The notes: generated by a model not told the origin, from the sequence alone. 64,000 bases of DNA from Armatimonadota bacterium (GCA_963677485.1 OY781964.1:2434980-2498979); one strand, 5' to 3'. Counted from the stretch's first letter, positions 9,414-58,071 are shown. Numbers and translations are program-made.

Positions 9414-9557
9414 AGTCGTCTACGCCCCAGCATATAGTGCAAGACGGATCTGGTATCATGGCTACGATATGTGGCCAGAGTTATGACATTCATATGGGTG
9501 ACGTGAAGGGATATTAAACGTCTACCAGAAACTTCGTATGTGCAAAGGAGTGTTGAA

Positions 9558-10151
9558 ATGGATCAAGAATGTTCTGTGTGCGGCCGAGTGCAGCCTGTAG
9601 AAAGTCGCTATTGCCCTTACTGTGGTGCCGATCGTCAGACCTCAAGCCGGCGTGACGACGGTGTGCAGTCAATAAAGTCCTACATATTACGTATAGTTTT
9701 AATATTAGTGGCTGTGTTTGTCGTGATCCCGGGGTTGGTAAGGCTTATCGTGGGGTTGTTTGTGGTTTCCTATTTCGGATCATCGCCGGTGCCAGAACAG
9801 CAGGTGCAGGTCAGTAATCCATCGACACCAGAAGTGCATACTACACAGACCTCTGGCGGCGTTCTTGGCGGCGGTAGTGTTAAAGCACCAAAACATATAT
9901 CGGGTTCGATCCGCACTTACAACGGCAACACGCCAGTGAACACACCCCACCAGTTTATGTCAATATCAAAATATCGTATACCGGGAATGAAGATATATGT
10001 AAAAGTAGGGGCTGGCGTATACACATATCACGCAGCTTACATCAGCGATGATGGGATTAATTGTGATGTGCGATTCCCAGATGGGTCGGTCGGAAGGATG
10101 GAGAACCGTGCTCTCAATAAACTATATACCGACTATTTGGCCCCTCGCTAG
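9558..10151 (+). CDS. Zinc-ribbon domain membrane protein, hypothetical.
   Basis: N-terminus MDQECSVCGRVQPVESRYCPYCGAD (CxxC...CxxC), then a transmembrane helix ILRIVLILVAVFVVIPGLVRLIVGLFVV and an extracytoplasmic tail. AAGGAG lies 8 nt upstream of the ATG at 9558. Confidence 0.6.
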   Translation: MDQECSVCGRVQPVESRYCPYCGADRQTSSRRDDGVQSIKSYILRIVLILVAVFVVIPGLVRLIVGLFVVSYFGSSPVPEQQVQVSNPSTPEVHTTQTSGGVLGGGSVKAPKHISGSIRTYNGNTPVNTPHQFMSISKYRIPGMKIYVKVGAGVYTYHAAYISDDGINCDVRFPDGSVGRMENRALNKLYTDYLAPR

Positions 10152-10182
10152 CCGGGTTAAGGGGGAATATCAATCCACAGAT

Positions 10183-10270
10183 GACGGGCATCCAACGCAA
10201 AGACGCAAAGGTGCAACGGACGCAGAGGGGTATCCCATCCGCGTTCATCTGCGTCCATCCGCGGTTTTAG
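10183..10270. repeat. Word-repeat island W2: CAACGCAAAGACGCAAAGGTGCAACGGACGCAGAGGGGTATCCCATCCGCGTTCATCTGCGTCCATCCGCGGTTTTAG.
   Basis: Near-identical to 8806-8882. Together they form direct repeats bracketing the 1.3-kb AT-rich segment at 8883-10182. Confidence 0.8.
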
Positions 10271-10496
10271 TAACCCTCCGCTGCGGCGGCGGCACCTCGC
10301 CGGGCAAGAAGCTTAAGAACGAAAAACCCAGCAGATTTACCCGTCCTGCATCCCTTGCACAACCCCGATATACCAAAATGCACCCAATCGGTAGTATGAT
10401 ATGTTGGTATAGAGTGTCGGTGTTTGGCAATTATAACAAAGCTGATCACGCCCCTATCCTTAGTATTCCGGCATTCCGAAGAAAGGATCAGTGTTC

Positions 10497-13400
10497 ATGG
10501 CACGTCCGCGTATCACCATTGACGGCAACGAAGCGGCAGCTTATGTTGCATACAAGACTAACGAAGTCATCGCCATCTATCCCATCACACCTTCATCCAA
10601 TATGGGTGAGTGGTCGGATGAATGGGCAGCCAAGCATGATAAGAACATCTGGGGCGTAGTACCCAGCGTGAAAGAGATGCAGAGTGAGGGAGGCGCCGCT
10701 GGTGCCGTGCATGGTGCCCTTCAAGCTGGATCGCTGACCACCACATTCACCGCAAGCCAAGGCTTGCTGTTGATGATCCCGAACATGTTTAAAATCGCTG
10801 GCGAACTCACCAGCACCGTGTTCCACATCGCAGCCCGAACAATCGCTACCCATGCACTTAGCATCTTCGGTGATCATTCGGACGTCATGTCCACCCGAAG
10901 CTGCGGCTGGGCCATGCTGAGCAGCAACAACGTGCAAGAGGTCATGGACCTGGCGTTGATTGCTCAAGCCGCCACTCTGGAAGCCAGGGTGCCCTTCATA
11001 CACTTTTTTGACGGTTTCCGCATTAGCCACGAGTTGTCCAAAATCGAGAAGTTGACCGATGAGGACATCAGGGCTATGATTGACGACGATCTCGTGAATG
11101 CGCACCGACAGCGCGGGCTTAACCCAGAGCACCCGGTGATGCGCGGTACCGCCCAAAACCCAGACGTCTTCTTCCAGGCTCGTGAAGCCTGCAACCCATA
11201 TTACGCCGCCACTCCCGCCATCGTTCAGAAGGCTATGGACAAGTTTGCCTCCATCGTTGGCCGCCAGTACAAGCTGTTCGATTATGTGGGTGCTCCAGAC
11301 GCAGAGCGTGTGGTCATCGCCATGGGCAGCGGTTGTGAAACGGTGGAAGAGACCGTTGAAGCACTGTTGGCTAAGGGCGAAAAGGTCGGCGTGCTGAAGG
11401 TTCGCCTCTACCGTCCATTCTCACCAGAGGATATGATTGCCGCCATCCCGACCACCGTGAAGAGCCTCGTGGTGCTGGACCGCACCAAAGAGCCCGGTGG
11501 ATTGGGCGAGCCTTTATATCAAGACGTGATGACCGCCTATGCAGAACGCTACAACGAAACCGGCATCCTGCCTCCCAAGATCATCGGCGGCCGCTACGGA
11601 CTGAGCTCCAAGGAGTTCACCCCAGCTATGGCCAAGGCTGTGCTGGATGAGCCGTTGAAGGCCCATCCCAAGAACCACTTCACAGTGGGCATTGATGATG
11701 ACGTGTCTCATACCAGCCTGGAGGTTCCTGAATTCCACGTGGAGATGAATGACGTCACCCGTGCCATGTTCTGGGGACTGGGAGCCGACGGTACCGTTGG
11801 TGCCAACAAGAACTCCATCAAGATCATCGGTGAAGATACCGACAACTACGCTCAGGGCTACTTCGTGTATGACAGCAAGAAGTCCGGCGCAGCCACCACC
11901 TCCCACCTTCGGTTTGGCCCACGCCCCATCAAGGCGCACTACCTTATCCAGAAGGCGAACTTCATCGCTGTTCACCAGAGCAACTTTATTGAGCGATACG
12001 ATGTGCTGGGAGCGGCTGCACAAGATGGCGTGTTCCTTCTGAATACCCCATTCAGCGCCGACGAAGTCTGGGATCAGATGCCCAAGACGGTGCAAGAGCA
12101 CATTATCAATAAGAACCTTCGCTTCTTCGTGATCAACGCTTACGATGTGGCTAAGAAGACCAACATGGGTGTGCGCATTAACACCATCATGCAGACATGC
12201 TTCTTTGCCATCTCCGGTGTTCTTCCTCGCGAAGAGGCTATTGAGCACATCAAGAAGTCCATTAAAAAAACTTACGGTAAGCGCGGTGATGCCATCGTAG
12301 CACAGAACTTCGCTGCTGTGGATGCCGCTCTGGAATACATGCATCAGGTCAGCGTTCCATCAACCGTCAGCAGCAAGATCGATATGCGCGCAGCGGTACC
12401 GGAGAATGCTCCTGAGTTCGTGAAGGGCCTGACGGCTGAGATCATCGCAGGACGCGGAGACGCTTGCCCTGTGAGCATGATGCCAGTCGATGGCACCTTC
12501 CCCACAGGCACCACCCAGTGGGAACGCCGCAACATCGCTCTGGACGTACCGGTCTGGGATCCCAGCACCTGTATCCAGTGCGGCAAGTGTTCGCTGGTCT
12601 GCCCGCACGGTGTCATCCGCAGCAAGGTTGTCAGTGACGCTGAGCTGGCTGGTGCTCCTGAAGGCTTCCAGACCACTGCTGCCAAGTGGAAAGAGTTCGA
12701 TGGCAAGAAATACACGCTTGCTGTGTCGGTGGAAGACTGCACTGGCTGCGGCTTATGCGTAAACTACTGCCCCGCCAAGAACAAGAGCAACGTCAGCCTG
12801 AAGGCCATCAACATGACCCCTCTGGCCGACGTGCGCGAAAAGGGCATGGCCGACTGGGACTTCTTCAAGAGTCTCCCAGCCACCGACCGTGCTAGCGGGT
12901 TGCGCTTCAACATGACCAAGAACCTGCAGTTGCTTGAACCCTACTTTGAGTTCAGCGGTGCCTGTTCTGGTTGCGGCGAAACACCATACGTGAAGGTGAT
13001 CAGCCAGATGTTTGGCGATCGCATGATCGTGGCCAACGCCACCGGATGCTCCAGTATCTACGGCGGTAACCTGCCCACCACCCCGTGGTGCCAGGACAAG
13101 GACGGCCGCGGTCCGGCATGGGCCAACAGCCTGTTTGAGGACAACGCCGAGTTCGGTCTGGGTATGCGTCTGGCTGTTGATCAGCAGCGCGGCTACGCCG
13201 TCAGCATGTTGACCAAGCTGCAAGACAAACTGGGTGCGGAACTGGTTGACGCGATCGTTCATGCCGACCAGAGCAGCGAAGAGGGCATCGCCGCTCAGCG
13301 CGAGCGAGTGGCTGCCGTCAAGGCGAAGATCACCGCTTGTGATTGTGCAGACTGCACGAACCTTCTGGGTGTTTTGGACCAGATGGTGAAGCGCAGTGTG

Positions 13401-14054
13401 TGGATATTCGGCGGCGACGGTTGGGCATACGACATCGGCTACGGCGGTTTGGATCACGTGCTGGCTAGCGGCCTGAACGTGAACGTGATGGTTCTGGACA
13501 CCGAGGTGTATTCCAACACCGGTGGACAGGCCAGCAAGGCCACTCCGTTCGGTGCTGTCGCGAAGTTCGCCTCCGGTGGTAAAGAGACCGGCAAGAAGGA
13601 CCTCGGTCTGATGCAGTCCTCCTACGGTAACGTGTATGTGGCTCAGATCGCCATGGGTGCCAACGAGGGCCAGGCTTTACGCGCCATTCAGGAAGCGGAA
13701 GCTTATGAAGGCCCGTCCCTGATCATTGCGTATTCGCACTGTATCGCCCACGGTATCGACATGGGTAACGGCCTTGCACAGCAGAAACTGGCTGTGGATT
13801 GCGGTTACTGGCCGCTGTGGCGTTACAACCCGTCATTAGTTGCCGAAGGCAAGAACCCATTCGTGCTTGATTCCGGCGATCCCAAGATCGCGTTGAAGGA
13901 CTACATTTCAACCGAAGGCCGGTACAAGATACTCATGAAGTCTAACCCGGAAGCTGCTGCGGCCCTAGCTAAGCTATCGCAAGCAGCCGTTACCGAGCGC
14001 CTGAAGCACTTCAAAATGCTAGCGGCTGCCCCCGGCAGTGCAGAACAGGCCTAA
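10497..14054 (+). CDS. nifJ: Pyruvate:ferredoxin (flavodoxin) oxidoreductase, single-polypeptide PFOR.
   Basis: 1185 aa. [34 protein letters not shown] is the canonical PFOR N-terminus. Two 4Fe-4S ferredoxin motifs ([26 protein letters not shown]) and TPP-binding [10 protein letters not shown] are present. GAAAGGA lies 9 nt upstream of the ATG at 10497. Confidence 0.93.
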
Positions 14055-16792: not shown

Positions 16793-17150
16793 TGGATTGT
16801 CTGAACCACGGATTACGCGGATAATTCGGATGACACGGATGGGGAGGCGGGTTTGTCACGCGAAGACGCGAAGACGCGAAGGGGGTGGGGAGTGTGTCAC
16901 GCGTAGACGCGAAGACGCGAAGGGGAGGCGGGTTGGACGGATGCGAGGGCGCGAAGACGCGAAGGGGCAAGGCGGGTTGGATGTATGCGAGGGCGTGGCG
17001 GGTATGGTGCGTATGGCTACCCCTGGGAACGCCAATCTCCCGATTGGCATTTCCCTTCCCCATTCGCGTTCATTCGTGTTCATTCGCGGTTAAAATGAGC
17101 CAGCAACAGGTCGGGTAGGATGAGTAGGACGAGTAAGGTAAGGGTAGGGC
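16793..17150. repeat. Word-repeat island W3, the richest in the window. It contains CTGAACCACGGATTACGCGGAT, GTGTCACGCGAAGACGCGAAGACGCGAAGG x3, CATTCGCGTTCATTCGTGTTCATTCGCGGTT and GGTAGGATGAGTAGGACGAGTAAGG.
   Basis: Direct reading. The modules are shared with islands at 26425, 44183, 53463, 57714 and 62350. The ORFs called here (16728-17093 and others) are repeat artefacts. Confidence 0.85.
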
Positions 17151-31141: not shown

Positions 31142-31530
31142 TATTTGCTCCTTTGTTGGGCGTTTTGAAGTCTCCTACGCGTCCGCTCATACGGTGTCCT
31201 CGACTTTCTTGTCAAGTTGCGGACCTGCTACCCGGCCTTTTTCTCTTTCCGTTTTACCAAACTTGCCGGGTTGCTTGCTACTCGAGGTAACCGCTTCGGC
31301 TACCCGATTCGCCGGTAATGAGAACTTGCCAGGATAGTTCTGGTATTCAGTTTACCTGCTATCTTATAGCGGGCTTGGTATCAACTGAACTATATTAGTA
31401 ATACCCGGTCCTGACAGCTTGAATCTTCTTTTTATGCCCAATTACATAAGTATTATTACTAGTTTTTTGGTATCACTTGACACTACACAGTATTGCAAGG
31501 TTATTCTTTGGTAGCTACTCAGACATTAAT

Positions 31531-31693
31531 GGCTATGTCCGGGGCGGTCTGTGCGTAGGCTAGCGGATGCAGAAGGCTCAAGACCGCGCCGGTCTGGCGG
31601 TTAGCCCTAAAAGATTTTTGTCGGGAACAAGACCGGCGCGGTCTATAGACTGTGGCCACCGCAGGCGTACTGACAGACCGCCCCGGACATTGG
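31531..31693. repeat. REP/MITE-like element, full unit in inverted arrangement.
   Basis: GGCTATGTCCGGGGCGGTCT...CAAGACCGCGCCGGTCTGGCGG...AAGACCGGCGCGGTCT...CAGACCGCCCCGGACATTGG. Confidence 0.8.
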
Positions 31694-31718: not shown

Positions 31719-34229
31719 TCACAAGGTGCTGGTCGGGTCGATGTCGATACTGAGTTGGCAGCCCTCCGGAAGGGTGATTCGCGGCAACGCCGCCTCCAGC
31801 AGAGCGGGCAGCTCGGACGGCTGCTGCACCTTCACCAGGCAGTGGTATCTATAAACACCCCTCACTCGACTGAGCGGTGCCGGCGCGGGGCCCATCAGCA
31901 GAGCCTTGGTGTTGCGGAACTGCACCATCTCCGCGAGCCGTAGCACCAGTTCGGCTGCGCCGACCTTGGCATCGGCTTCGACTTCGCTATTCACCACCAG
32001 GTTCGCCAGCCGTGAGAAGGGCGGGTAGCCCAACTGCCTGCGCAGCGGGATCTCGTGCTGGTAAAAGCCGAGGTAATCATGCTGACTGGCGCAAACCACC
32101 GCCTCATGCTCCGGGTTGAAGCTCTGCACGAACACCAGACCGGGTCGCTGCGAACGTCCCGCTCTTCCCGCCACCTGCGTGAGCAGTTGGAAGGTGCGTT
32201 CGCTGGCTCTAAAGTCGGGCAGGTTCAGCCCGCTGTCGGCCATCACCACACCTACCAGGGTGACGTTCGGAAAGTCCAGCCCTTTCGCCACCATTTGGGT
32301 ACCGATCAAGATATCCGCCTCATGGGCACGAAACTGGGCCAGTAGTTCGTGGTGAGATCCCTGACGCTGGGTGGTGTCGCGGTCCATCCTCAGAATGCGG
32401 GCATCCGGGAATAACCGCTGCACCTCCTCCTCCACCCTTTCGGTGCCAAGACCAAACGGCAGCGGATTGGGGGCCTGGCAGGTGGGGCACTTATCCGGTA
32501 GGGGGATGCTGTAGTCGCAGTGGTGGCACCGCAACAGCCCGTCAGCCTTGTGATAGGCCAGCGACACCGCGCACTGGTTGCACTTGATGGCGGTGCCGCA
32601 TTTGCGGCACATCACGAACATCGCCCAGGCCCGGCGGTTGATCAGCAGGATCACCTGCTCCCTCCAGCGCAGCGTATCTGTAATGGCGTTGGCCAGTGCG
32701 GAGCTGAAGATGCTGTTCTTCACCCGCGAGGCTTCGCGCATATCGACGATATGCACCTCCGGCATGGCGTTGCCCGACACGCGGCTGGGGAGGCAGAGCA
32801 GTTGCTCCGCCTGTTCCGCATGGTAGTAGCTCTCGATACTCGGCGTGGCGCTGCCCAGAAGCAGCACCGCTCCTGCCTGCTTAGCCCGGAACAGCGCGAC
32901 GTCACGCGCGTGGTATCTGGGCGAGTGGTCCTGCTGTTTGTAGGTCGCCTCGTGCTCCTCGTCCAGAATGATCAGCCCCATATGCTTTAACGGCGCGAAC
33001 ACCGCGCTGCGGGCGCCCACCACCACCGGGGCTTCGCCTTCCGCTACCCGCTGCCACTCATCAAACCGCTGACCGTTGCTCAATGCGCTATGCAGCACCG
33101 CCGCAAGCTCACCGAACCGCTCGCGCACCGCCTGCACAAGCTGGGAGGTCAGCGCAATCTCAGGCACCAGCAGCAGCGCGCTCCTGCCCTGCTTCAGGCA
33201 GTGCTCGATCGCCCGCAGGTAGACCTCCGTCTTGCCTGAGGCGGTCACCCCAAACAACAGCCACTGCCGGAACTCCGATGTATCGAGCCCGGTGTTGATG
33301 GTATCCAAAACTTCCGCTTGGTCCGATGTCAGCTCAAACTCGTGGTGCATCGCCGCTTTCTTGAGGGCTGCATCCACCATCGTAAATGGGTCGCGGCGCA
33401 CAGCCCGGTCGGTGATGCGGATGATACCCTTGTCCGACAGCGATTTGGCTGCGGAGCGTGTGGTGTGCAGCAGTTCCAGAAGTTCGGCCAGAGGCACGAC
33501 CGCATGATCCGGCTGCATCAGATGCGCCAGCAACGCTGCCTGTTTGGGCGCCCTATGCTTAAGGCCTTCCATGAGTTCCTCGGCCAACGCGTGACTGCAC
33601 GCCAGCTCCGCGTGCTGCACTAGCTTCTGGCGTGTGCTGGGCAGCTTCACCACACTCGCCTCGACCAGCAGGTTCCTGCGCTTCAGTTTTTGTATGGCGA
33701 TGCTGAGCTGGCTCGCTGGTATGCGGGCCTTTAGCCCCGCTTCCGGCAGCTCTCCACCGGCATCGCGGAGCAGGTTCAACAGCCGCTGCTCTACCGACAG
33801 CGCTTCGTCCTCAAACAGCTCCCGCTGATCGGCCTGAGGGGTCAGCCGCACCACCTTCTGTATTCGGGCGTGCATCTGCACCGGCGCAAGCAGATTAACG
33901 CACCGGCTGAGGGGGGCGTGATACTCCGCCGCCATCCACTCCGCCAGTTGCAGCCGCGGTCCGTCAATAGTGACCTCACCTTCTACAAACAGGCTGATCG
34001 GCTTGAATGACTCCATCTCACCAGGCTGACAGGTACGCAGCCGCGCCACGATGCCCAGCACCTCACGCCCGTGGAAGCTCACCAGCGCGCAGCGACCCAA
34101 CGCCGCCTCCGGGACCAGTTCCACAGGTACAAGATAGCTATATAACTCCTGAAGGGCCACAGCCAGGTTGATGACCAGGTCGGCCACGAGCGGAGCAGAC
34201 AGGCAGGTATTTTCTTCCATCACAGCCAA
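31719..34229 (-). CDS. priA: Primosomal protein N' (replication restart helicase PriA).
   Basis: 836 aa. Walker A GVTASGKTEV, DEAH-like LIILDEEHE, and a cysteine-rich zinc-binding region CRKCGTAIKCNQCAVSLAYHKADGLLRCHHCDYSIPLPDKCPTCQ. Confidence 0.92.
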   Translation of the reverse strand: MAVMEENTCLSAPLVADLVINLAVALQELYSYLVPVELVPEAALGRCALVSFHGREVLGIVARLRTCQPGEMESFKPISLFVEGEVTIDGPRLQLAEWMAAEYHAPLSRCVNLLAPVQMHARIQKVVRLTPQADQRELFEDEALSVEQRLLNLLRDAGGELPEAGLKARIPASQLSIAIQKLKRRNLLVEASVVKLPSTRQKLVQHAELACSHALAEELMEGLKHRAPKQAALLAHLMQPDHAVVPLAELLELLHTTRSAAKSLSDKGIIRITDRAVRRDPFTMVDAALKKAAMHHEFELTSDQAEVLDTINTGLDTSEFRQWLLFGVTASGKTEVYLRAIEHCLKQGRSALLLVPEIALTSQLVQAVRERFGELAAVLHSALSNGQRFDEWQRVAEGEAPVVVGARSAVFAPLKHMGLIILDEEHEATYKQQDHSPRYHARDVALFRAKQAGAVLLLGSATPSIESYYHAEQAEQLLCLPSRVSGNAMPEVHIVDMREASRVKNSIFSSALANAITDTLRWREQVILLINRRAWAMFVMCRKCGTAIKCNQCAVSLAYHKADGLLRCHHCDYSIPLPDKCPTCQAPNPLPFGLGTERVEEEVQRLFPDARILRMDRDTTQRQGSHHELLAQFRAHEADILIGTQMVAKGLDFPNVTLVGVVMADSGLNLPDFRASERTFQLLTQVAGRAGRSQRPGLVFVQSFNPEHEAVVCASQHDYLGFYQHEIPLRRQLGYPPFSRLANLVVNSEVEADAKVGAAELVLRLAEMVQFRNTKALLMGPAPAPLSRVRGVYRYHCLVKVQQPSELPALLEAALPRITLPEGCQLSIDIDPTSTL

Positions 34230-34261
34230 TATGATAGCAGAACAAACCGGAGGTTGCGCCT

Positions 34262-35785
34262 TTGCCTAAACCAAACCTGCTCTTTCTGATGTGCGACCAG
34301 TTGCGTTTCGATGCCATCGCAGCACTAGGCAATGCGCAGATATGCACCCCAAACATTGACCGACTGGTGAAGCGGGGTGTCTCGTTCACCAATGCCTACA
34401 GCAGTTGCCCGGTGTGTGTACCCGCTCGGGCCACACTGCGGACCGGCTGTGAGCCCTTCCACACCGCCGTGACCGAAAATGCGATGCCGCACCCGCTGCC
34501 CGATCAACCCGCAGATATGGAAGAGCGGTGCGGCAAATTCCTGGGTCGCACCATGCAGGGCCTGGGCTACCGCACATTTGGCATCGGTAAGTTCCATGCT
34601 GTGCCGGATGCCTGGCAGAACCTGGGTTACGACATCCAATTACACAGTGAGCCGCAGCCCCAAAGTGCAGAATGGCGCAAGCGTGACCACTACACCCATT
34701 GGATTGAGACCGAACACCCCGATTTTGCCTACCTGGAGAGTTTCCAGGGCGAACGCAGTGACTGCTACTACATCCCGCAGTGTGCCCCCCTGCCCCGCGA
34801 TCTGTGCATGGAGGGCTGGGCAGCCGAACAAACACGCAAGTTCATCAGTGAGCAGCCGACAGGGCAGCCGTGGTTTGGGTTTGTCAGCTTCTTTGGCCCG
34901 CATCCGCCTTTTGCACCACCCGTGCCTTTTAATCGCATGTACAACCCAGAAAACATGGATGTACCCATACTTGGTGAGATCGGCACCGACCATTTGGATG
35001 ACACCATACCCAGCATGAACTACGCGGTCTGGGCTGAGCAGATCGGGCCTTTGCTTAACCGGCAGCTCAAGGCGCGATATTATGGCGAAATCAGCTATAT
35101 CGACTGGTGCATCGGCATGATTCTGGATGAAGTGGAGAAAAGGCCCGATGCCGCCAACACCCTCATCGCGCTCTTCAGCGACCATGGCGACCACCTCGGA
35201 GACCATCACGCCTGGCAGAAGGAGAGCTTCTTCGAAGCAAGCTGCCACATCCCTCTGCTCATCAGTTGGCCTGGCCAACTCAAAGCGGATGTGCGTGACG
35301 ACCAACTGGCGGCCCTGACCGATCTGTTCGGCGTGGCCACCCGAGCAGCCGGAGCGGCCGAAATGCGCGACGGGCACGATATCCTGGGAGCTCATTTAGG
35401 GCAGGTGGCCCCACGCGAACGGCTGTATGGTTATTACGGCAGCCCTGGGGAGCGCAGCTTCAAGACTATGGTGCGATGGGAGCACTGGAAAATGATCACA
35501 ATGGCCAATGGCGGCCGAACGCAGCTGTTTAATTTGGAAACCGACCCCTATGAGATGAAAAACCTGGCCTATTCCCAAAGCAAAATATCAAAACGAATGG
35601 TAGAATGGTTGACAGAGCAGTTGATACGCCATCCATTTACAGCTCAGGCAGTACATGATGGACAGCTTATACAACTCGCATTCGAAATGGGTCCACGGCA
35701 AAGGCTGTGCCAGTTTGGATACCCTGGACCTGTTGGCTCTTTCTTCCCGGACGACCCTGCTGTTGTGTGGAAGGAACTAAAATAA
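34262..35785 (+). CDS. Sulfatase (arylsulfatase family, Cys-type).
   Basis: NLLFLMCDQLRFD...SSCPVCVPARATLRTG carries the C-x-P-x-R formylglycine motif; SDHGDHLGDH follows. It is divergent from priA with only a 32-bp gap. Confidence 0.9.
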   Translation: MPKPNLLFLMCDQLRFDAIAALGNAQICTPNIDRLVKRGVSFTNAYSSCPVCVPARATLRTGCEPFHTAVTENAMPHPLPDQPADMEERCGKFLGRTMQGLGYRTFGIGKFHAVPDAWQNLGYDIQLHSEPQPQSAEWRKRDHYTHWIETEHPDFAYLESFQGERSDCYYIPQCAPLPRDLCMEGWAAEQTRKFISEQPTGQPWFGFVSFFGPHPPFAPPVPFNRMYNPENMDVPILGEIGTDHLDDTIPSMNYAVWAEQIGPLLNRQLKARYYGEISYIDWCIGMILDEVEKRPDAANTLIALFSDHGDHLGDHHAWQKESFFEASCHIPLLISWPGQLKADVRDDQLAALTDLFGVATRAAGAAEMRDGHDILGAHLGQVAPRERLYGYYGSPGERSFKTMVRWEHWKMITMANGGRTQLFNLETDPYEMKNLAYSQSKISKRMVEWLTEQLIRHPFTAQAVHDGQLIQLAFEMGPRQRLCQFGYPGPVGSFFPDDPAVVWKELK

Positions 35786-35914
35786 AGCATCAAAGTGTAT
35801 TCTGTGTTACACTTATTCAGCTAACCGTATATCGAACACCATGCCCCCTGTTGGGCACCAATATCGCTAGCTTTCCATAGCGTAAATATACCATGCTGTA
35901 ACAGGAGGATCCCC

Positions 35915-38900
35915 GTGCGTCGACGCTTGCTTGCAATACCCATGCGATGGCAACTAATGGTGCTTGTGATCGTCACTATGGCTCCTCTTCTTGTGGGCTT
36001 GAGTTTGTTGTATTTGGATATATCCTCCAGCTCATACCAGAATGTGATCAACAATACTAAGAGCATCTCACAGGCATTTACCACCAGCCAGGAGACACTG
36101 CTTGATAACACCTATACTTTACTCTCCACCCTGGCCGATGTGGCAGCGCAAAAAGACATAAACCAGCTCCATAAGATACTGACTCAGGTCCATCGCCGCT
36201 CACCAGAATACCTGAACCTGTTCTATGTTTCTGCCGATGGGGTAGTCCGGTCCTCCGTATTACCCGCTCACCAAACATATCTAGGTGACCGAAGCTACGT
36301 GAAGGATGCGATCAGCAACCGGTCTTTCACAGTGGGCAGTTATCAGGTTGGACGCATTACCAAACAACCCACAATTAACTGTGGGTATCCTGTCTTGGAT
36401 TACTCAGGTAAGGTGATCGGGGTGGTGGCGGCCTCTATCGGCTTGTCGAATCTTTCTGAGATGTTTCAACGTTCTAACCTGCCAGAAGGCTCCCATATGG
36501 TTATGAGCGACCGCAATGGGGCTGTGCTGGCATCGACCGATGCCGATACGCAGGTAGGGCTTCAGGAAACCGAATATGTCCGCATGATTCTGGCGAACAG
36601 GCGGAGCCTGGCAGACATGGTAGAGGAAAAATCGGACCATGGGGTAGTTTACCATCACATCACTCCCCTGTTCATACGCCAATCCACTGTGCCGTACAGC
36701 TATTTGCGTATCAGCATACCTCGATCATCTATCATGCAAACAGCACACCATAGGTTGCAGTGGCTGTCCGGTTGGCTGATACCCTTTCTCATTCTTCCGT
36801 TGGTATTGTCATACATAGTAGGTCATCGCTACATCAGCAAGCGCCTTGATGCGGTGGTACAGACCGCGCGGAAACTGCAATCTGGGGATCTGTCTGCACG
36901 CTCAGCGCTTGAAGACGACCTTGGTGAGATTGGGATGCTGAGCAGTGTGTTTAACGAGATGGCTGACTCGGTTCAAAAATGGTATCAGCAACACCAGTTG
37001 GTTGAGAAGCAGTTGCGCGACAGCGAATCACGGTACCGCAATCTCGTGGAGCAGCTTCCTGCGGTCACTTATGTGATGGCATTCTCTAGTCACAGTGCTG
37101 AGGTGCTTTTCTTAAACTCGCATATTGTGGATATCACCGGCTATAAGGCCAGTGATTTCATCACCAATCCCACATTGCTGTCCTCACTGGTGTATAGCCA
37201 GGACCAGCCTGCATATAGGGCCTCCATGAATGTAGTGGCGAGACGTGAGCCGGTAGAGCTTACCTACCGCATCATTACCAGGTATGGTGATACGCGATGG
37301 GTATACGAAAAGTCGCAACTGATTGAATCTGCACAAGATGACAGTATCGTGATTCAAGGACTGCTGCTTGACATCACCGACACCCAGACCATGGCTGCTG
37401 AGCTGCACCAGAGTGAGGCGCGCTTCAAGCTGCTGGTCCAGTCAATGGGTGAGATGGTCATCACACTCGATTCAAACTATCGAGTGAATGGCATATACGG
37501 CTCCTCCGCCGATGTGCCGATTGGAATTGCCCCTGCCATTGGCCAGAACATCACTGATTTCCTGCCCGACTCTATTGCAGAGCTGCATATTAGGTATATG
37601 AGGCTATCGGAGCAAGGTCTGCCGCAAAGCTTTGAGTGGACCATCAACCAGCACGGCTTCGAATGGTTCCTTTTGAGCTCAGTCAGTTCGGTGATTCATG
37701 AATATAATGGCCATCAAGGCTATGTGGTCGTGGTGAAGGACGTCACTGAGATGAGAATGGCTGAAGCTGAGAGACGACAGCTCGATATGAAGATGCAGCA
37801 ATCTCAACGGCTAGAAAGCCTTGGTTTAATGGCAGGCGGTATTGCTCACGATTTTAACAACCTGCTTACTGGTGTCATGGGACATACCAGTTTAGCCATG
37901 TCCTGCGTCCCACAAGATCACCCGGTATACCAGGAGCTTGTTCACATATCGACAGCGACCCAATACGCCTCAGACCTGGTGAAGCAGATGCTCGCCTATA
38001 GTGGCCATGACAGCTTCCAGAAGCGAATACTAGACCTCAATAATGCGGTGCGGGATATGACCCAACTGCTGACTGTTTCCATACCGAAAAATGTGAAAAT
38101 CAACACCGAGCTCCAGTCTGGTGTGCTCGCAATAGAATCCGATCCTGTGCAGCTTCAGCAGGTGCTGATGAATATAGTCATCAATGCCGGTGAGGCGATT
38201 GGAACCGCCGCTGGTCAGATAACCATACGTACCGGCAACCGCCTGATCGGTGAAGACGAGTTATCAAACGGCTACATGAATGATGGGTTATCGGCCGGAA
38301 TGTATACTGTGGTTCAAATCATAGACACAGGATGCGGCATGGATGCGGAGACGCTGATCCGATTCTACGACCCCTTCTTCACCACGAAGTTCCCCGGACG
38401 AGGGCTGGGATTGGCCGCCGTTTTGGGTATCATGCGCAGCCATTCGGGCGGAATTCACGTGGTCAGTCGTCCAGGCGAAGGCACCACATTTACCTTGATT
38501 TTCCCATCTGTCTCGGAAGATGTTCCTGTGGAGGTGACTGCTGCTGATGGTGAGGACTGGCAGCCGGAGCATCAACTACACGCGCTGATAGTTGATGATG
38601 AAGAGGGTGTTCGGTTGGTGGCTACAGCCATGCTGAATCGTTTAGGTCTGACCGTAGAGACAGCCTGCGATGGTCAGGAGGGTGTTAACCTGGTCACCGC
38701 AAGTCCCAGCAAATACGATCTGATCGTGCTGGACCTTACGATGCCGAATATGGGCGGCGAAGAGGCTCTAGAACACATACGACAGTTATGTCCGGACATC
38801 CCGGTCGTCATCTCATCCGGGTATACCGAGATCGAAATGGAACTGCATTCTGACGAACGCCGGTTCGATGCGTTCCTTCAAAAGCCATACAGGTTAGAGC

Positions 38901-38956
38901 AGGTAAAGCAGGTGATCTCACAAGTTATGCGTGCCAGACAGACACGACATTCGTAG
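35915..38956 (+). CDS. Hybrid sensor histidine kinase / response regulator (Cache-like periplasmic sensor, HAMP, PAS, HisKA, HATPase, REC).
   Basis: Two transmembrane segments flank a periplasmic domain. HAMP is followed by PAS. H-box GIAHDFNNLL; G2-box GRGLGLA; receiver ALIVDDEEGVR...DLIVLDLTMPNMGG...VVISSGY. Confidence 0.9.
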   Translation: MRRRLLAIPMRWQLMVLVIVTMAPLLVGLSLLYLDISSSSYQNVINNTKSISQAFTTSQETLLDNTYTLLSTLADVAAQKDINQLHKILTQVHRRSPEYLNLFYVSADGVVRSSVLPAHQTYLGDRSYVKDAISNRSFTVGSYQVGRITKQPTINCGYPVLDYSGKVIGVVAASIGLSNLSEMFQRSNLPEGSHMVMSDRNGAVLASTDADTQVGLQETEYVRMILANRRSLADMVEEKSDHGVVYHHITPLFIRQSTVPYSYLRISIPRSSIMQTAHHRLQWLSGWLIPFLILPLVLSYIVGHRYISKRLDAVVQTARKLQSGDLSARSALEDDLGEIGMLSSVFNEMADSVQKWYQQHQLVEKQLRDSESRYRNLVEQLPAVTYVMAFSSHSAEVLFLNSHIVDITGYKASDFITNPTLLSSLVYSQDQPAYRASMNVVARREPVELTYRIITRYGDTRWVYEKSQLIESAQDDSIVIQGLLLDITDTQTMAAELHQSEARFKLLVQSMGEMVITLDSNYRVNGIYGSSADVPIGIAPAIGQNITDFLPDSIAELHIRYMRLSEQGLPQSFEWTINQHGFEWFLLSSVSSVIHEYNGHQGYVVVVKDVTEMRMAEAERRQLDMKMQQSQRLESLGLMAGGIAHDFNNLLTGVMGHTSLAMSCVPQDHPVYQELVHISTATQYASDLVKQMLAYSGHDSFQKRILDLNNAVRDMTQLLTVSIPKNVKINTELQSGVLAIESDPVQLQQVLMNIVINAGEAIGTAAGQITIRTGNRLIGEDELSNGYMNDGLSAGMYTVVQIIDTGCGMDAETLIRFYDPFFTTKFPGRGLGLAAVLGIMRSHSGGIHVVSRPGEGTTFTLIFPSVSEDVPVEVTAADGEDWQPEHQLHALIVDDEEGVRLVATAMLNRLGLTVETACDGQEGVNLVTASPSKYDLIVLDLTMPNMGGEEALEHIRQLCPDIPVVISSGYTEIEMELHSDERRFDAFLQKPYRLEQVKQVISQVMRARQTRHS

Positions 38957-39049
38957 GTAATGCCCATAGATGGGCAGGTTCAATTTGCTGTCTGTCCAGG
39001 CAGCAATGATTACTTCGCTGCTAAGGCAAAGGGCTTGATCTATTCCATT

Positions 39050-39142
39050 TTGTGGACATCAGTGGTAAAGCGGAACAGGTAGGCGTGGAAGCTGTCGTCG
39101 CCTTTCCATTTCATGACACAGGTGTCGCCGCCAAACTTCACC
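39050..39142 (-). pseudogene. Orphan fragment homologous to the C-terminal segment of the secreted GH-like protein at 42341-44071.
   Basis: Minus-strand translation VKFGGDTCVMKWKGDDSFHAYLFRFTTDVHK matches KFGGDTCVVKWKTDDSFHTYLFRFTADAKK. Nucleotide similarity to 42450-42545 is visible by eye. No upstream ORF exists. Confidence 0.65.
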
Positions 39143-39187
39143 GTAGCCCGTTATTCCCACTTCGCAAACACTTAACCTAAGGACACA

Positions 39188-42100
39188 ATGATGCACATCG
39201 GCCGAAGACTCATCTTGCATACAGCACTCATGACTATGCTCGTTTTCGCATTACTCGGATCCGCCTTCGCCGCGAAGCTTGATGACCTGGAAAGGGCATT
39301 CACCAATCCGCCGGCAGCGGCGAAACCAGGCGTGCTCTGGATGTGGATGGGCTGCAACCTCAGTAAACAAGGCATCACACGTGACCTGGAGGCGTTGAAA
39401 GCGGCAGGCTTCAACCGCACCACGATGTTCAGCCTGGCCGATGTCACTACACCATGGGCTGGGGAGATCGGCAACAGCCCGACCCCCGAGATCATATCAT
39501 GGACCGAGCCATGGTGGTAGTTGGTGTGTCATGCGGCACTTGAATCGAAGCGGCTGGGGATGGACTTCGGGATGTTCAACGGACCGAGTTATGAGTCAAG
39601 CGGAGGTCCTTGGATCACTGCAGAGAACTCCATGCAGCAGATATGTTTTTCACAAAGCCCTGTTAACGGCGGAGGGCTGATCAGCATATCTCTGCCTCGC
39701 CCTACCGTGGATCTGCGTGCTGTGCAGTCATTCCCCGTGTTCAACCCGAACACCGGCCTGGTTGAGATGCCGATAATTCCTGAACGTCAGAGTTATTACC
39801 GCGACATCGCGGTGCTTGCCATGCCCGCCGATGGTGTCGTGTCAAAAGACCAGATCATCGACCTGAGTTCCCAACTCAGTGCTGACGGCAGTCTTAACTG
39901 GAAGGCACCGACAGGGAACTGGATCATCTACCGGCTTGGTCATACCACCATGGGCACGCTCATCCAACCCGCACAATGGAAAGCAACGGGCTTCGAGTGT
40001 GACAAGATGAGCCTGGAAGCCGTCACGTTCCACATGAATCACATGGTGGGTGAGATCAAGAAGCACATCGGCGATCTGATCGGCAACAGCTTCACTCATG
40101 TGCATTTCGACAGCTACGAGGCAGGCACACCCTCATGGACACCCAAGATGCGGGAGCAGTTCGCCAAGAGGCGCGGGTATGACATGACACCTTACCTGGC
40201 TACATTCGCTGGACGCATTGTGGAAGGCGACCCACAAACCAGCAAGTTTCAAGCTGACTTCAATACCACCACTCAGGATATTTATCGCGATGTGTAGTTT
40301 AGTACCGTGCAAAAGATTCTTCATGAGGCAAAACTCGAATTCCTGTGCGAGCCATACGGCGGTCCATGGAGACAGACGGATATCATGCCAAAGGTCGATC
40401 GTGTGATGACTGAGTTCTGGACCGGAGGCGGACGCTATCAGCCCTATGAGGTGGAGTCCACCATCGCGGCACTGAGGAAGAGTGGGCAGAACATCGTGGA
40501 GGCAGAGGCCTTCACCGGCGGTCCAGGAGACAGCCAGTGGAGCGAAACACCGGATTGGCTGAAACCCATCGGCGATGCGGCCTACTGTGCTGGCATCAAC
40601 CGCTTCGTACTGCACCGCTTCCCGCAGCAGCCATGGGATGACCGATACAAACCGGGTGCCACGATGGGACAGTGGGGCACGCACTTCGACCGCACACAGA
40701 CCTGGTGGGAGCCCGGAAAGGCGATGACCAAATACTGGCAGCGATGCCAGGCGTTGCTGCAGTTTGGCAAAATCGCACCACTGGATTTCGTGGTAGATGA
40801 TTCCGCACCTTCCGGGTTTTCACCACGAGCCATTCACCGACGCACTGCGAAGCAGGATGTATGGTTCGTGGCGAATCTAGAGCGTACCGAAGGCGTGGCT
40901 GCGTGTGTATTCAACATCTCGGGCAAACAGCCTGAGCTATGGGATGCAGCAACGGGTGAACGACGTGTTCTCTCCGATTTCCAGATATCAGGCGGAGAAA
41001 CTAAGATTTATCTGAAGTTCGCACCCACCCAGAGCTTCTTCGTGGTGTTTCGCCAGCCGCTTACCAAATCTCAGATCAAGAAAAGCAACAACCCAAAACT
41101 TATACCAGTCACCGAGATAACGGGAAGCTGGGATGTCAGCTTCGACCCCAAATGGGGCGGTCCAAAGTCCGCTAAATTTGACAAGCTGACCGACTGGACT
41201 TCCCGTCCTGAAGCTGGTATACGCTATTACTCAGGGACGGCCATCTGCCGCAAGAGCTTCGATGCAACCCACTTCAAGCAGGTCACCTACCTGGAGCTAG
41301 GAACGGTGAATCACATTGCCCGCGTTCGCTTGAACGGTCGCGATTTAGGGGTGGTCTGGTGCGCTCCCTGGGGTGTGCATCTGCCCGCGAAACTGCTCAA
41401 ACCCAAGGGCAACATGCTTGAGATAGAGGTCACCAACGTCTGGGCTAACCGGTTAATTGGCGATGAACAACAACCTGCCGATTGCGAATGGCTGCCTGGG
41501 CACATGGGCGGCTGGTTCTTGAAGCGGTTCCCCGATTGGTTTGTGAAGGGTCAAGCACGACCATCCAAGGGTCGCTATTGCTTCACCACCTGGAACTACT
41601 TCACCAAAGACTCTCCGCTGGTGCCTTCAGGCTTGCTGGGGCCGGTTCGGCTGATGTCGGAAGACTGGAGCTACGCAGGCGCGCCGGTCTTTCCGGTCAC
41701 ACCTATAACCCTCCGGTCACGGGTTGGCGATACGAGCTCATCCGAGTTTGAGAATGATGTCTTGAAAAGTGGATTAGTTCCGGTTGCCAGCATCACTGAC
41801 ACCGCACCCGCACGTGATGGCGGGGGCCAGAGCGCCGATGTACTGTTTAACGGCACCACGCTGAACGGCTCTGGCGGATCAGATACCCTTAACGATGGCA
41901 AGACCTTCCGCGGTTATGGCACAGGCAGCCTGTTGGATATCCGCTTCGATACAGCCAAAAATCCCAAGGGTTACGACCTGACAGCCATTCGCAGCTTCGC
42001 CGGACACTTTGACAGCCGGTCCAGCCAGAGCTACACGCTGCTGGTCGCCTTTGCCGGTGACCCGATGAAGTTCATTAAGTTAACGTCGGTAAAGCTACTC

Positions 42101-42274
42101 TACGGCGGGAAATCCACTGAGTTACGAATCGCCGCACGGGATGGCGGCGTGCTGCGCAACGATGAGGGCTGCAGGGCCTCTGGCGTAGCGGCAGTAAGGT
42201 TCGCTTTCGATGATGGAGCTGTAGGCTTCAATGTCTACCGCGAAGTATGCATTGTTGGAACACCGACACGGTAA
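39188..42274 (+). pseudogene. Glycoside hydrolase, GH106-like (alpha-L-rhamnosidase family; assignment tentative), 1028 codons, interrupted by two in-frame TAG codons (39518-39520 and 40295-40297). Pseudogene, sequencing artefact or readthrough candidate.
   Basis: The three ORF-track pieces (39188-39520, 39521-40297, 40307-42274) are all in the same frame and contiguous. Signal peptide, then FTNPPAAAKPGVLWMWMGCNLSKQGITRDLEALKAAGFN N-terminal motif. Both stops are TAG, in a G-TAG-TT context. Confidence 0.7.
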
Positions 42275-42340
42275 ACAGGTCCGCACATAACTACAAGGGC
42301 AGACGACTAACGCGCTTAGAAGCTGCCCCTGCAGGCCTGC

Positions 42341-44071
42341 CTACCTGGCTGCTTTTGCGAAGACCTTGATCCACTCGATCTCTATCTTCGTGCCTGGGGT
42401 ATCGGGGAAGTCCGCCCGGATGTTCTTCAGCATCTCGTCTTTTTTGGCGTCGGCGGTGAAACGGAACAGGTAGGTGTGGAAGCTGTCGTCAGTCTTCCAT
42501 TTCACGACACAGGTGTCACCCCCAAACTTCATCTTGTCCGTCTCCCAGAAGAAGTTTCCCTTATCGGATTCGCCAGCATTATTGATACGAACCCGTATGG
42601 CGATGCCCTCAATGTTGGATATCGGCCCCCAGTTGCCCGGGATGATCATGAAGGGGTCTCCGTTGGTGACGGTCATCACGGCTTTGCCACCGATCAGCTC
42701 CGGACCGCTCATATTAGCGATACCCAAATTGGTCCGTAGCTGGCCGGCTGGCCACTCAGATATGGCGTTCTTGGGCAGTTCCGCAGGGTCGACTACATAG
42801 GCAACACTCTTGTTGGCGACAAATACCGGTGATGGTGGGCCAGCTTCAACCTTCACCGCCGCCGCGAGCTGCTCATCGTCAAGCACGCTGTATGACCGGA
42901 CCTGCTCAGGGGTGGGACGGGCCCACTTGTTAGGGCCTTTGTTACCAAACACCCGGCGGACCGCATCGAGGTGCGAAAAGCCGAACTCCTTAGATGGCTC
43001 CAGGTGTGATCCCTCTCCCCACTCATTCCAGGCCTCGATCATGAAGTATGGGAACTCGGGTTTGACTAGTGCTTTTCCGTTGCGCAGCATCTGCTCGAAC
43101 AGCGCGGGCGTCCAGCCGGTGCGCACCCAGTTCGGCTGACCACCAGGAAGCGTCCGAGGGCTGTCGTCCCAACCCGCCTGCGCTCCCACGATGAACGGCT
43201 TCTTCTTGCCCAGCATCTTTTGCCAGATCGGCTTTACCCCTTCCACAATCTCCGAGTAGGGGGCTGAGCCGGGGAAGGTCCAGTAGGAGTCCGTCAGCAC
43301 CCAGTGGTAGCTATAAGAGGTGAACGCATCGCCGACAGGCACATCCGCGACCAGGCTGGGCTCGTTGTTGTCCCAAACAAGGAAGAGATCACCCAGACCA
43401 CGCGCCCGGCAGAGCGCATTCAATCGCGGCAGCACCTTGAGCTGGAACTTATCCGCCCCGCCGCATGCTGCCAGAATCGGCTTGATGTCCAGGATCATAA
43501 ACACAGGTCGGCCCTTGATCTTGAGGTAGTTCGGGCGGACGAAGTAGTTGTCCACGCAGTATTTGATCATCGCTTCCAGCGCGTCAGGGTCAAATACGAA
43601 CGTCCGCTTATAGTCAAGTCCGTGATTACACCAGTTGATGCAGAACTGCATCTGCTCGTTGTAGCGGGCGTTCAGGAACCCCTTCTCCAGACTTCTAGCC
43701 AGCCGCTTCTCGCCGTCACTATAATACCAGTCGAAAGCAAACCAGCTAATACCCGCCTCAAGCGCCCACTTGATGTGCCAGTCGTTCACCTCGGGCATCG
43801 AGTCGTCGTAGAAACTCAGCACCGGCCGCGGTTTTGGCAGCTTCGCGATAGCGGACATCCACTCACTCTGCTCATCGAAGGTCGGATATGGGTAGTCATT
43901 GGTGCCGGCTTTGCGGTACCAGCCAGGGAAAATGTAGGTTCCCACCTTGATGCTGGTTTCCACCGGTTTTGGCGGCGGCACCGGATAGGCAGTATCGGCA
44001 CGTGTGATGACAGACACCCCCAGCATAAATCCCATCATACAAATCAGCAGCAGAGTTGTTGTTCTATCCAT
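42341..44071 (-). CDS. Secreted TIM-barrel glycoside-hydrolase-like protein (GHL / GH99 / GH71-like; family unassigned) with a C-terminal beta-sandwich module.
   Basis: Signal peptide MDRTTTLLLICMMGFMLGVSVITRA. Core SFYDDSMPEVNDWHIKWALEAGISWFAFDWYY. The C-terminal module is duplicated as a fragment at 39050-39142. Confidence 0.6.
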   Translation of the reverse strand: MDRTTTLLLICMMGFMLGVSVITRADTAYPVPPPKPVETSIKVGTYIFPGWYRKAGTNDYPYPTFDEQSEWMSAIAKLPKPRPVLSFYDDSMPEVNDWHIKWALEAGISWFAFDWYYSDGEKRLARSLEKGFLNARYNEQMQFCINWCNHGLDYKRTFVFDPDALEAMIKYCVDNYFVRPNYLKIKGRPVFMILDIKPILAACGGADKFQLKVLPRLNALCRARGLGDLFLVWDNNEPSLVADVPVGDAFTSYSYHWVLTDSYWTFPGSAPYSEIVEGVKPIWQKMLGKKKPFIVGAQAGWDDSPRTLPGGQPNWVRTGWTPALFEQMLRNGKALVKPEFPYFMIEAWNEWGEGSHLEPSKEFGFSHLDAVRRVFGNKGPNKWARPTPEQVRSYSVLDDEQLAAAVKVEAGPPSPVFVANKSVAYVVDPAELPKNAISEWPAGQLRTNLGIANMSGPELIGGKAVMTVTNGDPFMIIPGNWGPISNIEGIAIRVRINNAGESDKGNFFWETDKMKFGGDTCVVKWKTDDSFHTYLFRFTADAKKDEMLKNIRADFPDTPGTKIEIEWIKVFAKAAR

Positions 44072-48645: not shown

Positions 48646-49300
48646 GACCGGGGCGGTCTCGGTTGCCTATGTCCGGGGCGGTTTTCCCTAACCACGCCGG
48701 CCTTGATCCATGCGTGACGAGGGATTTACGGCTAACCGCCAGACCGGCGCGGTCTTGAGTCTTCTGTAGCCGCGAGCCTCCTGTCAGACCGCCCCGGACA
48801 TAGGCAATGATTGCTTCTCGATATTATGGCCAGCGTCCGGGGCGGTTTCTCCTAACCGCGCCGGTCTTGATCTATGCGTGACGAGGGATTTACGGCTATC
48901 CGCCAGACCGGCGCGGTCTTGAGCTTTCTGTAGCCGCCAGCCTCCTGTCAGACCGCCCCGGACATAGGCAATGATTACTTCTTGATATTATTGCCAGAGT
49001 CCGGGCGGTTTTCTCCTAACCGCGCCGGTCTTGATCTATGCGTGACGAGGGATTTACGGCTATCCGCCAGACCGGCGCGGTCTTGAGATTTCTGCAACCG
49101 CAAGCCGCCTGTCAGACCGCCCGGACATAGGCAATGGTAGCTTCTCAATATTATGGCCAGAGTCCGGGGCGGTTTTCCCTAACCGCGCCGGTCTTGATCT
49201 ATACGTGACGAGGGATTAACGGCTATCCGCCAGACCGGCGCGGTCTTGAGCCTTCAGTAGCCTCGAGCCACCTGTCAGACCGCCCCGGACATAGGCAATG
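48646..49300. repeat. Tandem array of four REP/MITE-like units of about 160-165 bp. Each has inverted repeats GTCCGGGGCGGT...AGACCGCCCCGGACATAGG and inner arms ACCGCGCCGGTCT...AGACCGGCGCGGT.
   Basis: Four head-to-tail copies are directly visible with scattered point differences. The array fills the whole gap between two convergent GH genes. Confidence 0.9.
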
Positions 49301-49328
49301 GTAGCACCAGCAATCCGCAGAATCTCCC

Positions 49329-53551: not shown

Positions 53552-54170
53552 GTTGCCGCGGGTTTAGTCACCCCATGAATGGGGTTCCCTCACCGCGCGT
53601 CTAGGTTATCGCAGCCCGCAAGCGGGCGCATGTTGCCCTCCGCCAGCGCCTGCAGGAGCGTAGCGACGCGGGCAGCCATCTAATCAGCGACGGGTGATGG
53701 AGCCCCCTGGGGCGATGGAACCCGTCGACACGGGACGGTCGTTGATATCGGAGGTGTTTAGCCCTCGCTGCCGCGGGTTTAGTCACCCCGTGAACGGGGT
53801 TCCCTCACCGCGCGTCTAGGTATTGGCAGCCCGTAATCGGGCGCATGGCCCTCCGCCAGCGCCCGCAGGAGCGAAGCGACGCGGGCAGCCATCTGATCAG
53901 CGACGGGTGATGGAGCCCCCTGGGGCGATGGAACCCGTCGACTCGGGGCCGCTCACCTATATCGCAGGCTACCAGCCTCGCTGCCGCGGGTTTAGTCACC
54001 CCATGAATGGGGTTCCTTCACCGCGCGTATAGGTATTTGCAGCCCGCAAGCGGGCGCATGGCCCTCCGCCAGCGCCCGCTGGAGCGAAGCCGACGCGGGC
54101 AGCCAACTGATCAGCGACGGGTGATGGAGCCCCCTGGGGCGATGGAACCTGTCGACACGGGCGTGTTGAC
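53552..54170. repeat. Tandem array of about 2.9 copies of a 216-bp unit rich in hairpins. Candidate structured ncRNA or satellite.
   Basis: Units start at 53552, 53768 and 53984 (period 216). The hairpin CACCCCATGAATGGGGT in units 1 and 3 reads CACCCCGTGAACGGGGT in unit 2; the A-T pair becomes G-C, a compensatory change. Other conserved hairpins: GCCCGCAAGCGGGC and GCCCCCTGGGGC. The small ORFs at 53601-54204 are repeat artefacts. Confidence 0.85.
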
Positions 54171-57713: not shown

Positions 57714-58071
57714 GGGGCTGAACCGCGGATGGACGCAGATAGACGCGGATGGGGAGGAGTATCTGAACCACGGATTACGCGGATGACACGGATGGGTTCG
57801 GATGGAGAGGGAGTGCCTACACCACGGATGGACGCAGATAGACGCCGATGGGGGAGTGTCTGAACCGCGGCTTACGCGGATGACACGGATGGGTTCGGAT
57901 GGAGAGGGAGTGTCTATTCTACGGATGGACACGGATGGACACGGATGGACACCGATGGGTTCGGATGGGAGGTGCATCATCAACCACTATACACAGTTAC
58001 TTATCCTCTATGGTTCAGATGCTCCCTCTCCATCTGTGTCATCATGAAAATCCGTGTAATCCGTGGTTCAG
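57714..58071. repeat. Word-repeat island W8 (CTGAACCGCGGATGGACGCAGATAGACGCGGATGG, CTGAACCACGGATTACGCGGATGACACGGATGGGTTCGGATGG x2, ACGGATGGACACGGATGGACACGGATGGACACCGATGG...AATCCGTGTAATCCGTGGTTCAG).
   Basis: Direct reading with 10-bp periodicity. It ends with a reverse-complement copy of the GAACCACGGATTAC module. Confidence 0.85.

Follow-up and report, generated by a model that had tools for sequence, protein, structure and literature searches.

BT0986 of Bacteroides thetaiotaomicron (5MQM, 5MQN and 5MWK) is a structurally characterised alpha-L-rhamnosidase of the GH106 family, in which D458, S459, E538 and E561 are calcium ligands, E461 is the catalytic acid and E593 the catalytic base (PMC6828813). 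A GH106 structure has also been solved for RHA-P from Novosphingobium sp. PP1Y (6Q2F). We analyzed a 64-kb stretch of DNA, referred to here as the window, which contains a GH106 frame on the plus strand at 39188-42274. This window copy shows clear homology to BT0986 and shares six active-site residues with it. BT0986 carries an insert of approximately 150 residues between the two aligned blocks, which the window copy does not have, whereas the window copy is extended at its C-terminus by about 200 residues (from approximately residue 830), a stretch otherwise found only in long-form homologues and not in BT0986. RHA-P is the best match among the solved structures: searches with the intact orthologue of the window copy gave E=1.4e-108 for 6Q2F and E=6e-102 for 5MQM. 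The alignment with RHA-P spans the N-terminal barrel, the central region and the C-terminal beta domains, with an identity, judged by eye, of only about 30-40% in the aligned blocks. In contrast to BT0986 and RHA-P, the window copy is broken by two premature stops.

Translation of the window showed that 39188-42274 (+) is a single frame of 1028 codons plus a terminal TAA, containing exactly two internal stops, both TAG, and no frameshifts. Stop 1 is codon 111 (39518-39520, +, context TGG TGG TAG TTG) and stop 2 is codon 370 (40295-40297, +, context GAT GTG TAG TTT). A single ungapped tblastn alignment runs through both TAGs, pairing residues 1-1027 of the intact orthologue P0121 with 39191-42271 at 90.6% identity. 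Translation and alignment thus confirm the initial annotation, which had described one continuous frame of 1028 codons with two TAGs and no frameshift. A six-frame scan identified the GH106 frame as the only stop-interrupted long coding frame in the 64-kb window. A second candidate, at the same-frame TAG 52616 on the minus strand, was rejected, since this is a true boundary between two complete genes: the upstream gene encodes a complete xylose-isomerase-like TIM barrel, its Pfam match reaching profile position 248 of 249, and the downstream gene, coding for a GH42-like protein, has an ATG and a signal peptide of its own. The same GH106 sequence, with the two TAGs, recurs without any difference in a 5.19-Mb ENA contig (L001) and a Logan contig represented by three runs (L002); the literature yielded no entry for the run and assembly accessions. 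An intact allele of the window strain was not found in a protein collection of approximately 15 billion entries.

The three pieces delimited by the stops match the profile PF17132 (Glyco_hydro_106) in colinear order, the first at profile positions 2-44, the second up to position 364 and the third from position 370. With scores of 38, 215 and 128 bits, all three exceed the gathering score of 29 bits, and together they span positions 2-534 of the profile. Among 5.8 billion proteins searched, 1242 homologues were detected; PF17132 is carried by all 120 that were listed, and among the matches listed the closest full-length ones are 66-69% identical. All GH106 homologues detected in a scan of GTDB genomes were distant (67% identity or less), and a JGI metagenome scan with GAGCCNTGGTGGNAGTTGGTG returned 10 loci, none of them from a close relative. 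To locate the active site, the catalytic region of the window copy was aligned to 5MQM (E=7e-69) and to the E461Q mutant 5MWK. Within the motif Asp308-Ser309-Tyr310-Glu311 (40109-40120, +), D308 and S309 correspond to the calcium ligands D458 and S459 of BT0986 and E311 to the catalytic acid E461. Further downstream on the same strand, Glu388 (40349-40351) and Glu409 (40412-40414) correspond to the calcium ligands E538 and E561, and Glu440 (40505-40507) to the catalytic base E593. Thus, all six of the six catalytic and calcium-binding residues of BT0986 are retained in the window frame. In an alignment that sets the query against 16 homologues, all but one of them full-length, the columns of E388, E409 and E440 show little or no variation. 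Membership in GH106 is well supported, since all six active-site residues are present and solved structures are matched.

The frame begins with a probable Sec signal peptide (39188-39271, +), recognized in the translation as MMHIGRRLILHTALMTMLVFALLGSAFA and presumably cleaved before AKL; the N-termini of the homologues in the same alignment contain an equivalent hydrophobic stretch. The signal peptide lies before stop 1, D308, S309 and E311 lie between the stops, and E388, E409 and E440 follow stop 2. Since acid, base and signal peptide are distributed over different pieces, no fragment can be an active secreted enzyme. As encoded, the product would end after 110 residues and comprise the signal peptide and the first part of the catalytic barrel. 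No full-length protein would be made, and with translation stopping at this point an active rhamnosidase is not expected from the gene.

DNA alignments with the closest relatives revealed what stood at the two stop positions. At stop 1 the contig L003, which carries P0121, has CAG (Gln) and the contig L078 has AAG (Lys); at stop 2 they have TAC and TAT, respectively, both coding for Tyr. Each TAG is therefore a single substitution away from a sense codon. In the broader alignment the stop 1 column contains K, Q, R, A or D among the 16 homologues and the stop 2 column mostly Y and rarely H or D, while BT0986 has Glu and Phe520 at these positions. None of the orthologues has a stop at either position, and both are occupied by a sense residue in all 15 of the 15 full-length homologues. 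The codons of the relatives rule out an ancestral TGG; the initial annotation had proposed TGG-to-TAG changes with Trp as the expected residue, and the orthologues carry Gln or Lys at site 1 and Tyr at site 2 instead. If the ancestral codon at stop 1 was CAG, the change was C>T, the commonest substitution class on the window lineage. The mutation at stop 2 is a transversion at the third codon position.

Both stops are embedded in the same sequence G-TAG-TT, as had been noticed before. The flanking codons are common to the close relatives: site 1 lies between TGG (Trp) and TTG (Leu), site 2 between GTG/GTA (Val) and TTT/TTC (Phe). This context was thus inherited rather than created, because the flanking bases belong to conserved neighbouring codons. 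In addition, the hexamer GTAGTT occurs 33 times in the window where 13 are expected, a 2.5-fold over-representation. The shared context, although present at both stops, is therefore statistically unremarkable, and it is probably a coincidence.

The GH106 frame lies between two intact genes. Upstream, a hybrid sensor kinase of 1013 amino acids (35915-38956, +) with dCache, HAMP, PAS, HATPase and receiver domains was identified by the gene call on L001 and by Pfam. Downstream, a GH99-like/WbsX protein of 576 amino acids (42341-44071, -) was identified in the same way; 90% orthologues of it are present in relatives. A direct repeat of 92 nt brackets the GH106 gene, with copies at 39049-39140 and 42440-42531 that are 83% identical. 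The downstream copy lies within the intact GH99-like gene, and the upstream copy is a dead C-terminal GH99/WbsX-like fragment (39049-39140, -): translated, it reads ATVKFGGDTCVMKWKGDDSFHAYLFRFTT, which corresponds to the C-terminal end of the intact GH99-like protein, KMKFGGDTCVVKWKTDDSFHTYLFRFTA, and it is flanked by stops. The initial annotation had mentioned other gene debris in the window, but the window is not rich in it: this 3' fragment is the one piece found, and the other long ORFs checked with Pfam look whole.

Exact-sequence look-ups with the neighbouring proteins led to close relatives (clusters at >=90%) in MAGs labelled "Armatimonadota bacterium" at NCBI. In the closest collinear relative (GCA_054606775.1, contigs L089/L090, 87-91% nucleotide identity), the GH106 gene is absent. 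The sensor kinase and the GH99-like gene are only 222 bp apart on L089, and 242 unrelated bases stand in place of window positions 38926-42335, with no detectable scar of a GH106 deletion at this locus; GH106 may have been either gained in the window lineage or lost in L089. GH106 is likewise absent at the same locus in L091 (OW818647.1), where the block of PriA, sulfatase and kinase is inverted, an inversion that is also found in L078. Because GH106 is absent at the same locus in these two close relatives, the gene is dispensable. Clustered at 90% identity, the third fragment groups with the intact P0121 (1027 aa) and the partial P0122, from contigs L003 and L078. P0121 (Logan SRR26784071) is syntenic and of the same length as the window copy, with 90.6% amino-acid and 88.7% nucleotide identity, and has Gln and Tyr where the window copy has TAG. 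Its neighbourhood shares the PriA, sulfatase, sensor kinase and GH99-like genes with the window and contains four extra genes. At synonymous sites, the window and L003 diverge by 0.43 in GH106 and by 1.2-1.9 in the flanking genes, which suggests that GH106 moved between these two lineages more recently than the lineages split. Taken together, genes in this region have been gained, lost and inverted among close relatives that apparently belong to the Armatimonadota. The locus is unstable and prone to rearrangement, and GH106 is a dispensable accessory gene in it, which is the expected setting for a nonsense pseudogene.

To determine how far the gene has decayed, substitutions on the terminal branches leading to the window, L003 and L078 were counted. 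On the window branch, 25 changes are non-synonymous and 74 are synonymous; the resulting ratio of 0.34 compares with 0.37 for L003, where the gene is intact, and 0.32 for L078. By this ratio no relaxed constraint is measurable in the window copy across the three branches. Conserved columns are violated at 4 of 261 positions, which places the window copy at an unremarkable rank 38 of 121 sequences when it is compared with 120 homologues. One non-conservative change is specific to the window, Arg114 to Cys (39527-39529, +), where the window has TGT and the relatives have CGA or CGT. It lies three codons past stop 1, in a column that is Arg in 15 of the 16 aligned homologues and Gln in one, and it may be an early sign of decay, although taken alone it is not significant. 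The inactivation was recent, since the catalytic and calcium-binding residues are kept and the ratio matches that of intact relatives, and decay has hardly set in. The absence of relaxation fits a very recent inactivation and is in itself no independent proof of a loss of function.

The chance of two such stops was estimated as well. Stop-creating changes make up 3.8% of all possible substitutions in the GH106 gene and 46% of these create TAG; given two nonsense mutations, the probability that both are TAG is therefore approximately 0.21. By an estimate from the branch counts, the neutral phase lasted for roughly 1-2 substitutions and for no more than about 15, and the chance of a second stop arising in such a phase is roughly 7-45%. 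Two nonsense mutations accompanied by almost no other relaxation are thus a mild coincidence and not an anomaly.

We conclude that the GH106 frame is very probably a recently inactivated accessory gene, that is, a young pseudogene (39188-42274, +), identified as a member of the alpha-L-rhamnosidase family by translation, PF17132, homologues, structures and tblastn of P0121. An ancestor of the strain would have had a working secreted enzyme of this family with approximately 1028 residues. Two independent single-base substitutions would then have turned codon 111, formerly CAG or AAG, and codon 370, formerly TAC or TAT, into TAG. With the first stop in place, the second would have been selectively neutral. 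A young nonsense pseudogene was one of three explanations offered in the initial annotation, and it is the one that the intact orthologue, the sense codons in the relatives and the absence of the gene in two of them bear out.

The second explanation offered was a sequencing or assembly error, in which case both positions would be sense codons and the gene intact. Such an error would agree with the otherwise perfect preservation of the GH106 gene, and assemblies of this kind can be faulty: in L078 (ERZ21831019), which is from the same project series, every gene is in pieces. L001 and L002 represent the same strain and may share reads. As the runs behind the identical assemblies may be shared or related, the agreement of these assemblies leaves a small residual probability for a systematic base-calling error. 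The faults of L078 are frameshifts, however, and not substitutions. Approximately 45 long ORFs over the 64 kb are unbroken, those scanned with Pfam match whole profiles, and two stop-making substitution errors within one 3-kb gene are extremely improbable. The two changes differ in type and in their position within the hexamer, so that one motif-linked miscall cannot explain both.

A systematic miscall linked to the motif GTAGTT was considered in view of the k-mer composition of the window, in which GTAC is the most depleted 4-mer (observed/expected 0.41) and GTAG (1.45) and CTAC (1.43) are the most enriched. It was rejected: the GTAC/GTAG bias is common to relatives sequenced in other projects, and when the flanking genes are compared with those of L089, GTAC-to-GTAG changes are not in excess on the window side. 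The k-mer bias is consequently a trait of the lineage and not an artefact, because relatives from other projects share it and the branch shows no excess. With unbroken ORFs around the gene, two changes of different type and no GTAC-to-GTAG excess, an error is improbable, and the mutations are most likely real.

The third explanation, amber readthrough or suppression, states that a suppressor tRNA or a leaky context yields some full-length enzyme. How TAG is used elsewhere in the window bears directly on it. Among 43 ends of long ORFs in the window (the two internal stops left out), 24 are TAG, 11 TAA and 8 TGA, and TAG accounts for 15 of 30 stop codons in the gene calls of three relatives. For the GreA, URO-D-like and xylose-isomerase-like proteins, the terminal TAG comes no more than a few positions from where the Pfam profile ends. 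The genuine TAG ends that had been ascribed to greA and the URO-D-like gene were thereby substantiated, and with TAG as the commonest genuine stop the earlier dismissal of a global reassignment holds. That TAG is the majority stop of the lineage may have a wider bearing than the pseudogene itself.

Near-cognate tRNAs are known to insert Gln or Lys and Tyr at UAG, which are the ancestral residues at the two sites, and readthrough would agree with the lack of decay downstream of the stops and with the retention of all catalytic residues. The fit of the ancestral residues is, however, equally true of any codon one base away from TAG. Since TAG is the majority stop in the window and makes up half of the stops in the relatives, an amber suppressor would extend about half of the proteome. 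Neither TAG is conserved in any relative, and the two sites require different amino acids. Both TAGs are followed by a U at position +4, which is a strong termination context in E. coli. The 64-kb window contains no tRNA genes and no Rfam elements, and RNA folds over 123 nt, taken at each TAG and downstream of it, do not exceed those of shuffled sequences in stability (z +0.3 to +0.9). A recoding RNA signal was rejected on these grounds, as folding and Rfam were both empty. With TAGs that are not conserved, no RNA signal and TAG as the dominant real stop, readthrough or suppression is very unlikely as an explanation of the locus. It is just as doubtful that the gene is still usefully expressed by efficient near-cognate readthrough inserting Gln or Lys and Tyr. 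If this were true, it would explain why the frame has not decayed downstream of the stops, and it would mean that a bacterium with TAG as more than half of its stops tolerates or exploits efficient UAG readthrough.

Least credible of all is a functional split enzyme made by termination and reinitiation after each stop, with three polypeptides that assemble: candidate starts do lie close behind the stops (TTG or GTG after stop 1, with the TTG at 39521, and GTG at 40307, three codons after stop 2), but these Leu and Val codons were inherited and occur in unsplit orthologues as well, the homologues are all single chains, the breaks cut the catalytic barrel and part the acid from the base, and the pieces would end up in different compartments, since only the first has a signal peptide. 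Likewise, three separate genes with natural boundaries at these points, which the initial annotation had kept in mind, are refuted by orthologues that are single polypeptides of 970-1060 aa.

A young pseudogene thus remains by far the most probable reading of the GH106 frame. For annotation, the three called genes (109, 221 and 629 aa) are best joined into a single entry marked as a pseudogene. The locus is a textbook example of an accessory gene for carbohydrate degradation shortly after its inactivation, and it adds a small data point on the turnover of glycan-utilisation genes. The event is of an already known kind, an ordinary nonsense pseudogene and not recoding. As in other such pseudogenes, the stops of the window copy are one base away from sense codons, a relative has an intact orthologue, the gene is missing from sister lineages, and gene debris adjoins it. 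There is no difference of substance between it and ordinary nonsense pseudogenes; the window copy is merely very young, with two stops and as yet no measurable relaxation of constraint.

Comparison of the locus at window positions 31719-44071 with the corresponding regions of L089 (GCA_054606775.1), L091 (OW818647.1), L078 (ERZ21831019) and L003 shows that it is structurally unstable between close relatives. The GH106 gene, the alpha-L-rhamnosidase-family frame with two internal TAG stops at 39188-42274 (+), is present at this locus in some close relatives and absent in others. L091 and L078 carry the block of PriA, the sulfatase and the sensor kinase in inverted orientation, and four additional genes are found at the L003 locus. 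In the 20-kb L078 contig (ENA ERZ21831019 ctg24873l) all genes are broken into several pieces, PriA for instance into four. This contig is of low quality and rich in indels; its substitutions can be used, its reading frames cannot.

Synonymous divergence was determined between the window and L003, the contig carrying an intact GH106 orthologue. It amounts to 0.43 for GH106 (window 39188-42274, L003 10001-13084), whereas the flanking PriA, sulfatase and GH99-like genes are saturated with values of 1.2-1.9. Since the divergence of GH106 is lower than that of its neighbours, the sequence comparison suggests that the gene was recently exchanged horizontally between lineages.

The GH106 gene is flanked on both sides by a 92-nt direct repeat with 83% identity between the copies (39049-39140 (-) and 42440-42531). 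The upstream copy (39049-39140) is a dead C-terminal piece of a GH99/WbsX-like gene, and the same fragment is also located upstream of the GH106 gene in L078. Recombination joining the two copies would remove GH106 cleanly.

Further repeats are present in intergenic regions of the window. A 164-bp unit is arranged in tandem at 48671-49305 (3.9 copies, 91% identity), and related copies are located in two other intergenic regions (1668-1821 and 31530-31611). One unit is predicted to adopt a long hairpin-like fold that terminal inverted repeats (GUCCGGGGCGGUU...GACCGCCCCGGAC) close, with a fold energy of -70.3 kcal/mol and z-scores of -4.0 on the plus and -2.0 on the minus strand. Rfam gave no family match; the unit resembles MITE- or REP-like elements. 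Three other intergenic tandem repeats were detected at 53554-54161 (213 bp x 2.8), 57722-57948 (97 bp x 2.3) and 16908-16995 (44 bp x 2.0), the 213-bp array having a weak match (about 80%) in L091.

Two 203-aa ORFs that overlap in different frames (9540-10659, +) precede the pyruvate:ferredoxin oxidoreductase gene (10491-14054). Neither matched Pfam, and they could be spurious or represent an unrecognised gene.

Across the whole window the most depleted tetranucleotide is GTAC (73 observed, 176 expected, ratio 0.41), and the most enriched are GTAG (1.45) and CTAC (1.43). Comparison with L003, L078, L004, L005, L010 and L053 revealed that this pattern is common to the relatives and several Verrucomicrobiota loci. 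Restriction avoidance of GTAC could be a candidate cause of its depletion.

TAG is the commonest genuine stop codon in the window, terminating 24 of 43 long ORFs, and it ends 15 of 30 gene calls in the relatives L003, L089 and L091. TAG usage is low across bacteria generally (PMC9348620); if genome-wide, majority-TAG stop usage would be an unusual trait of this lineage.
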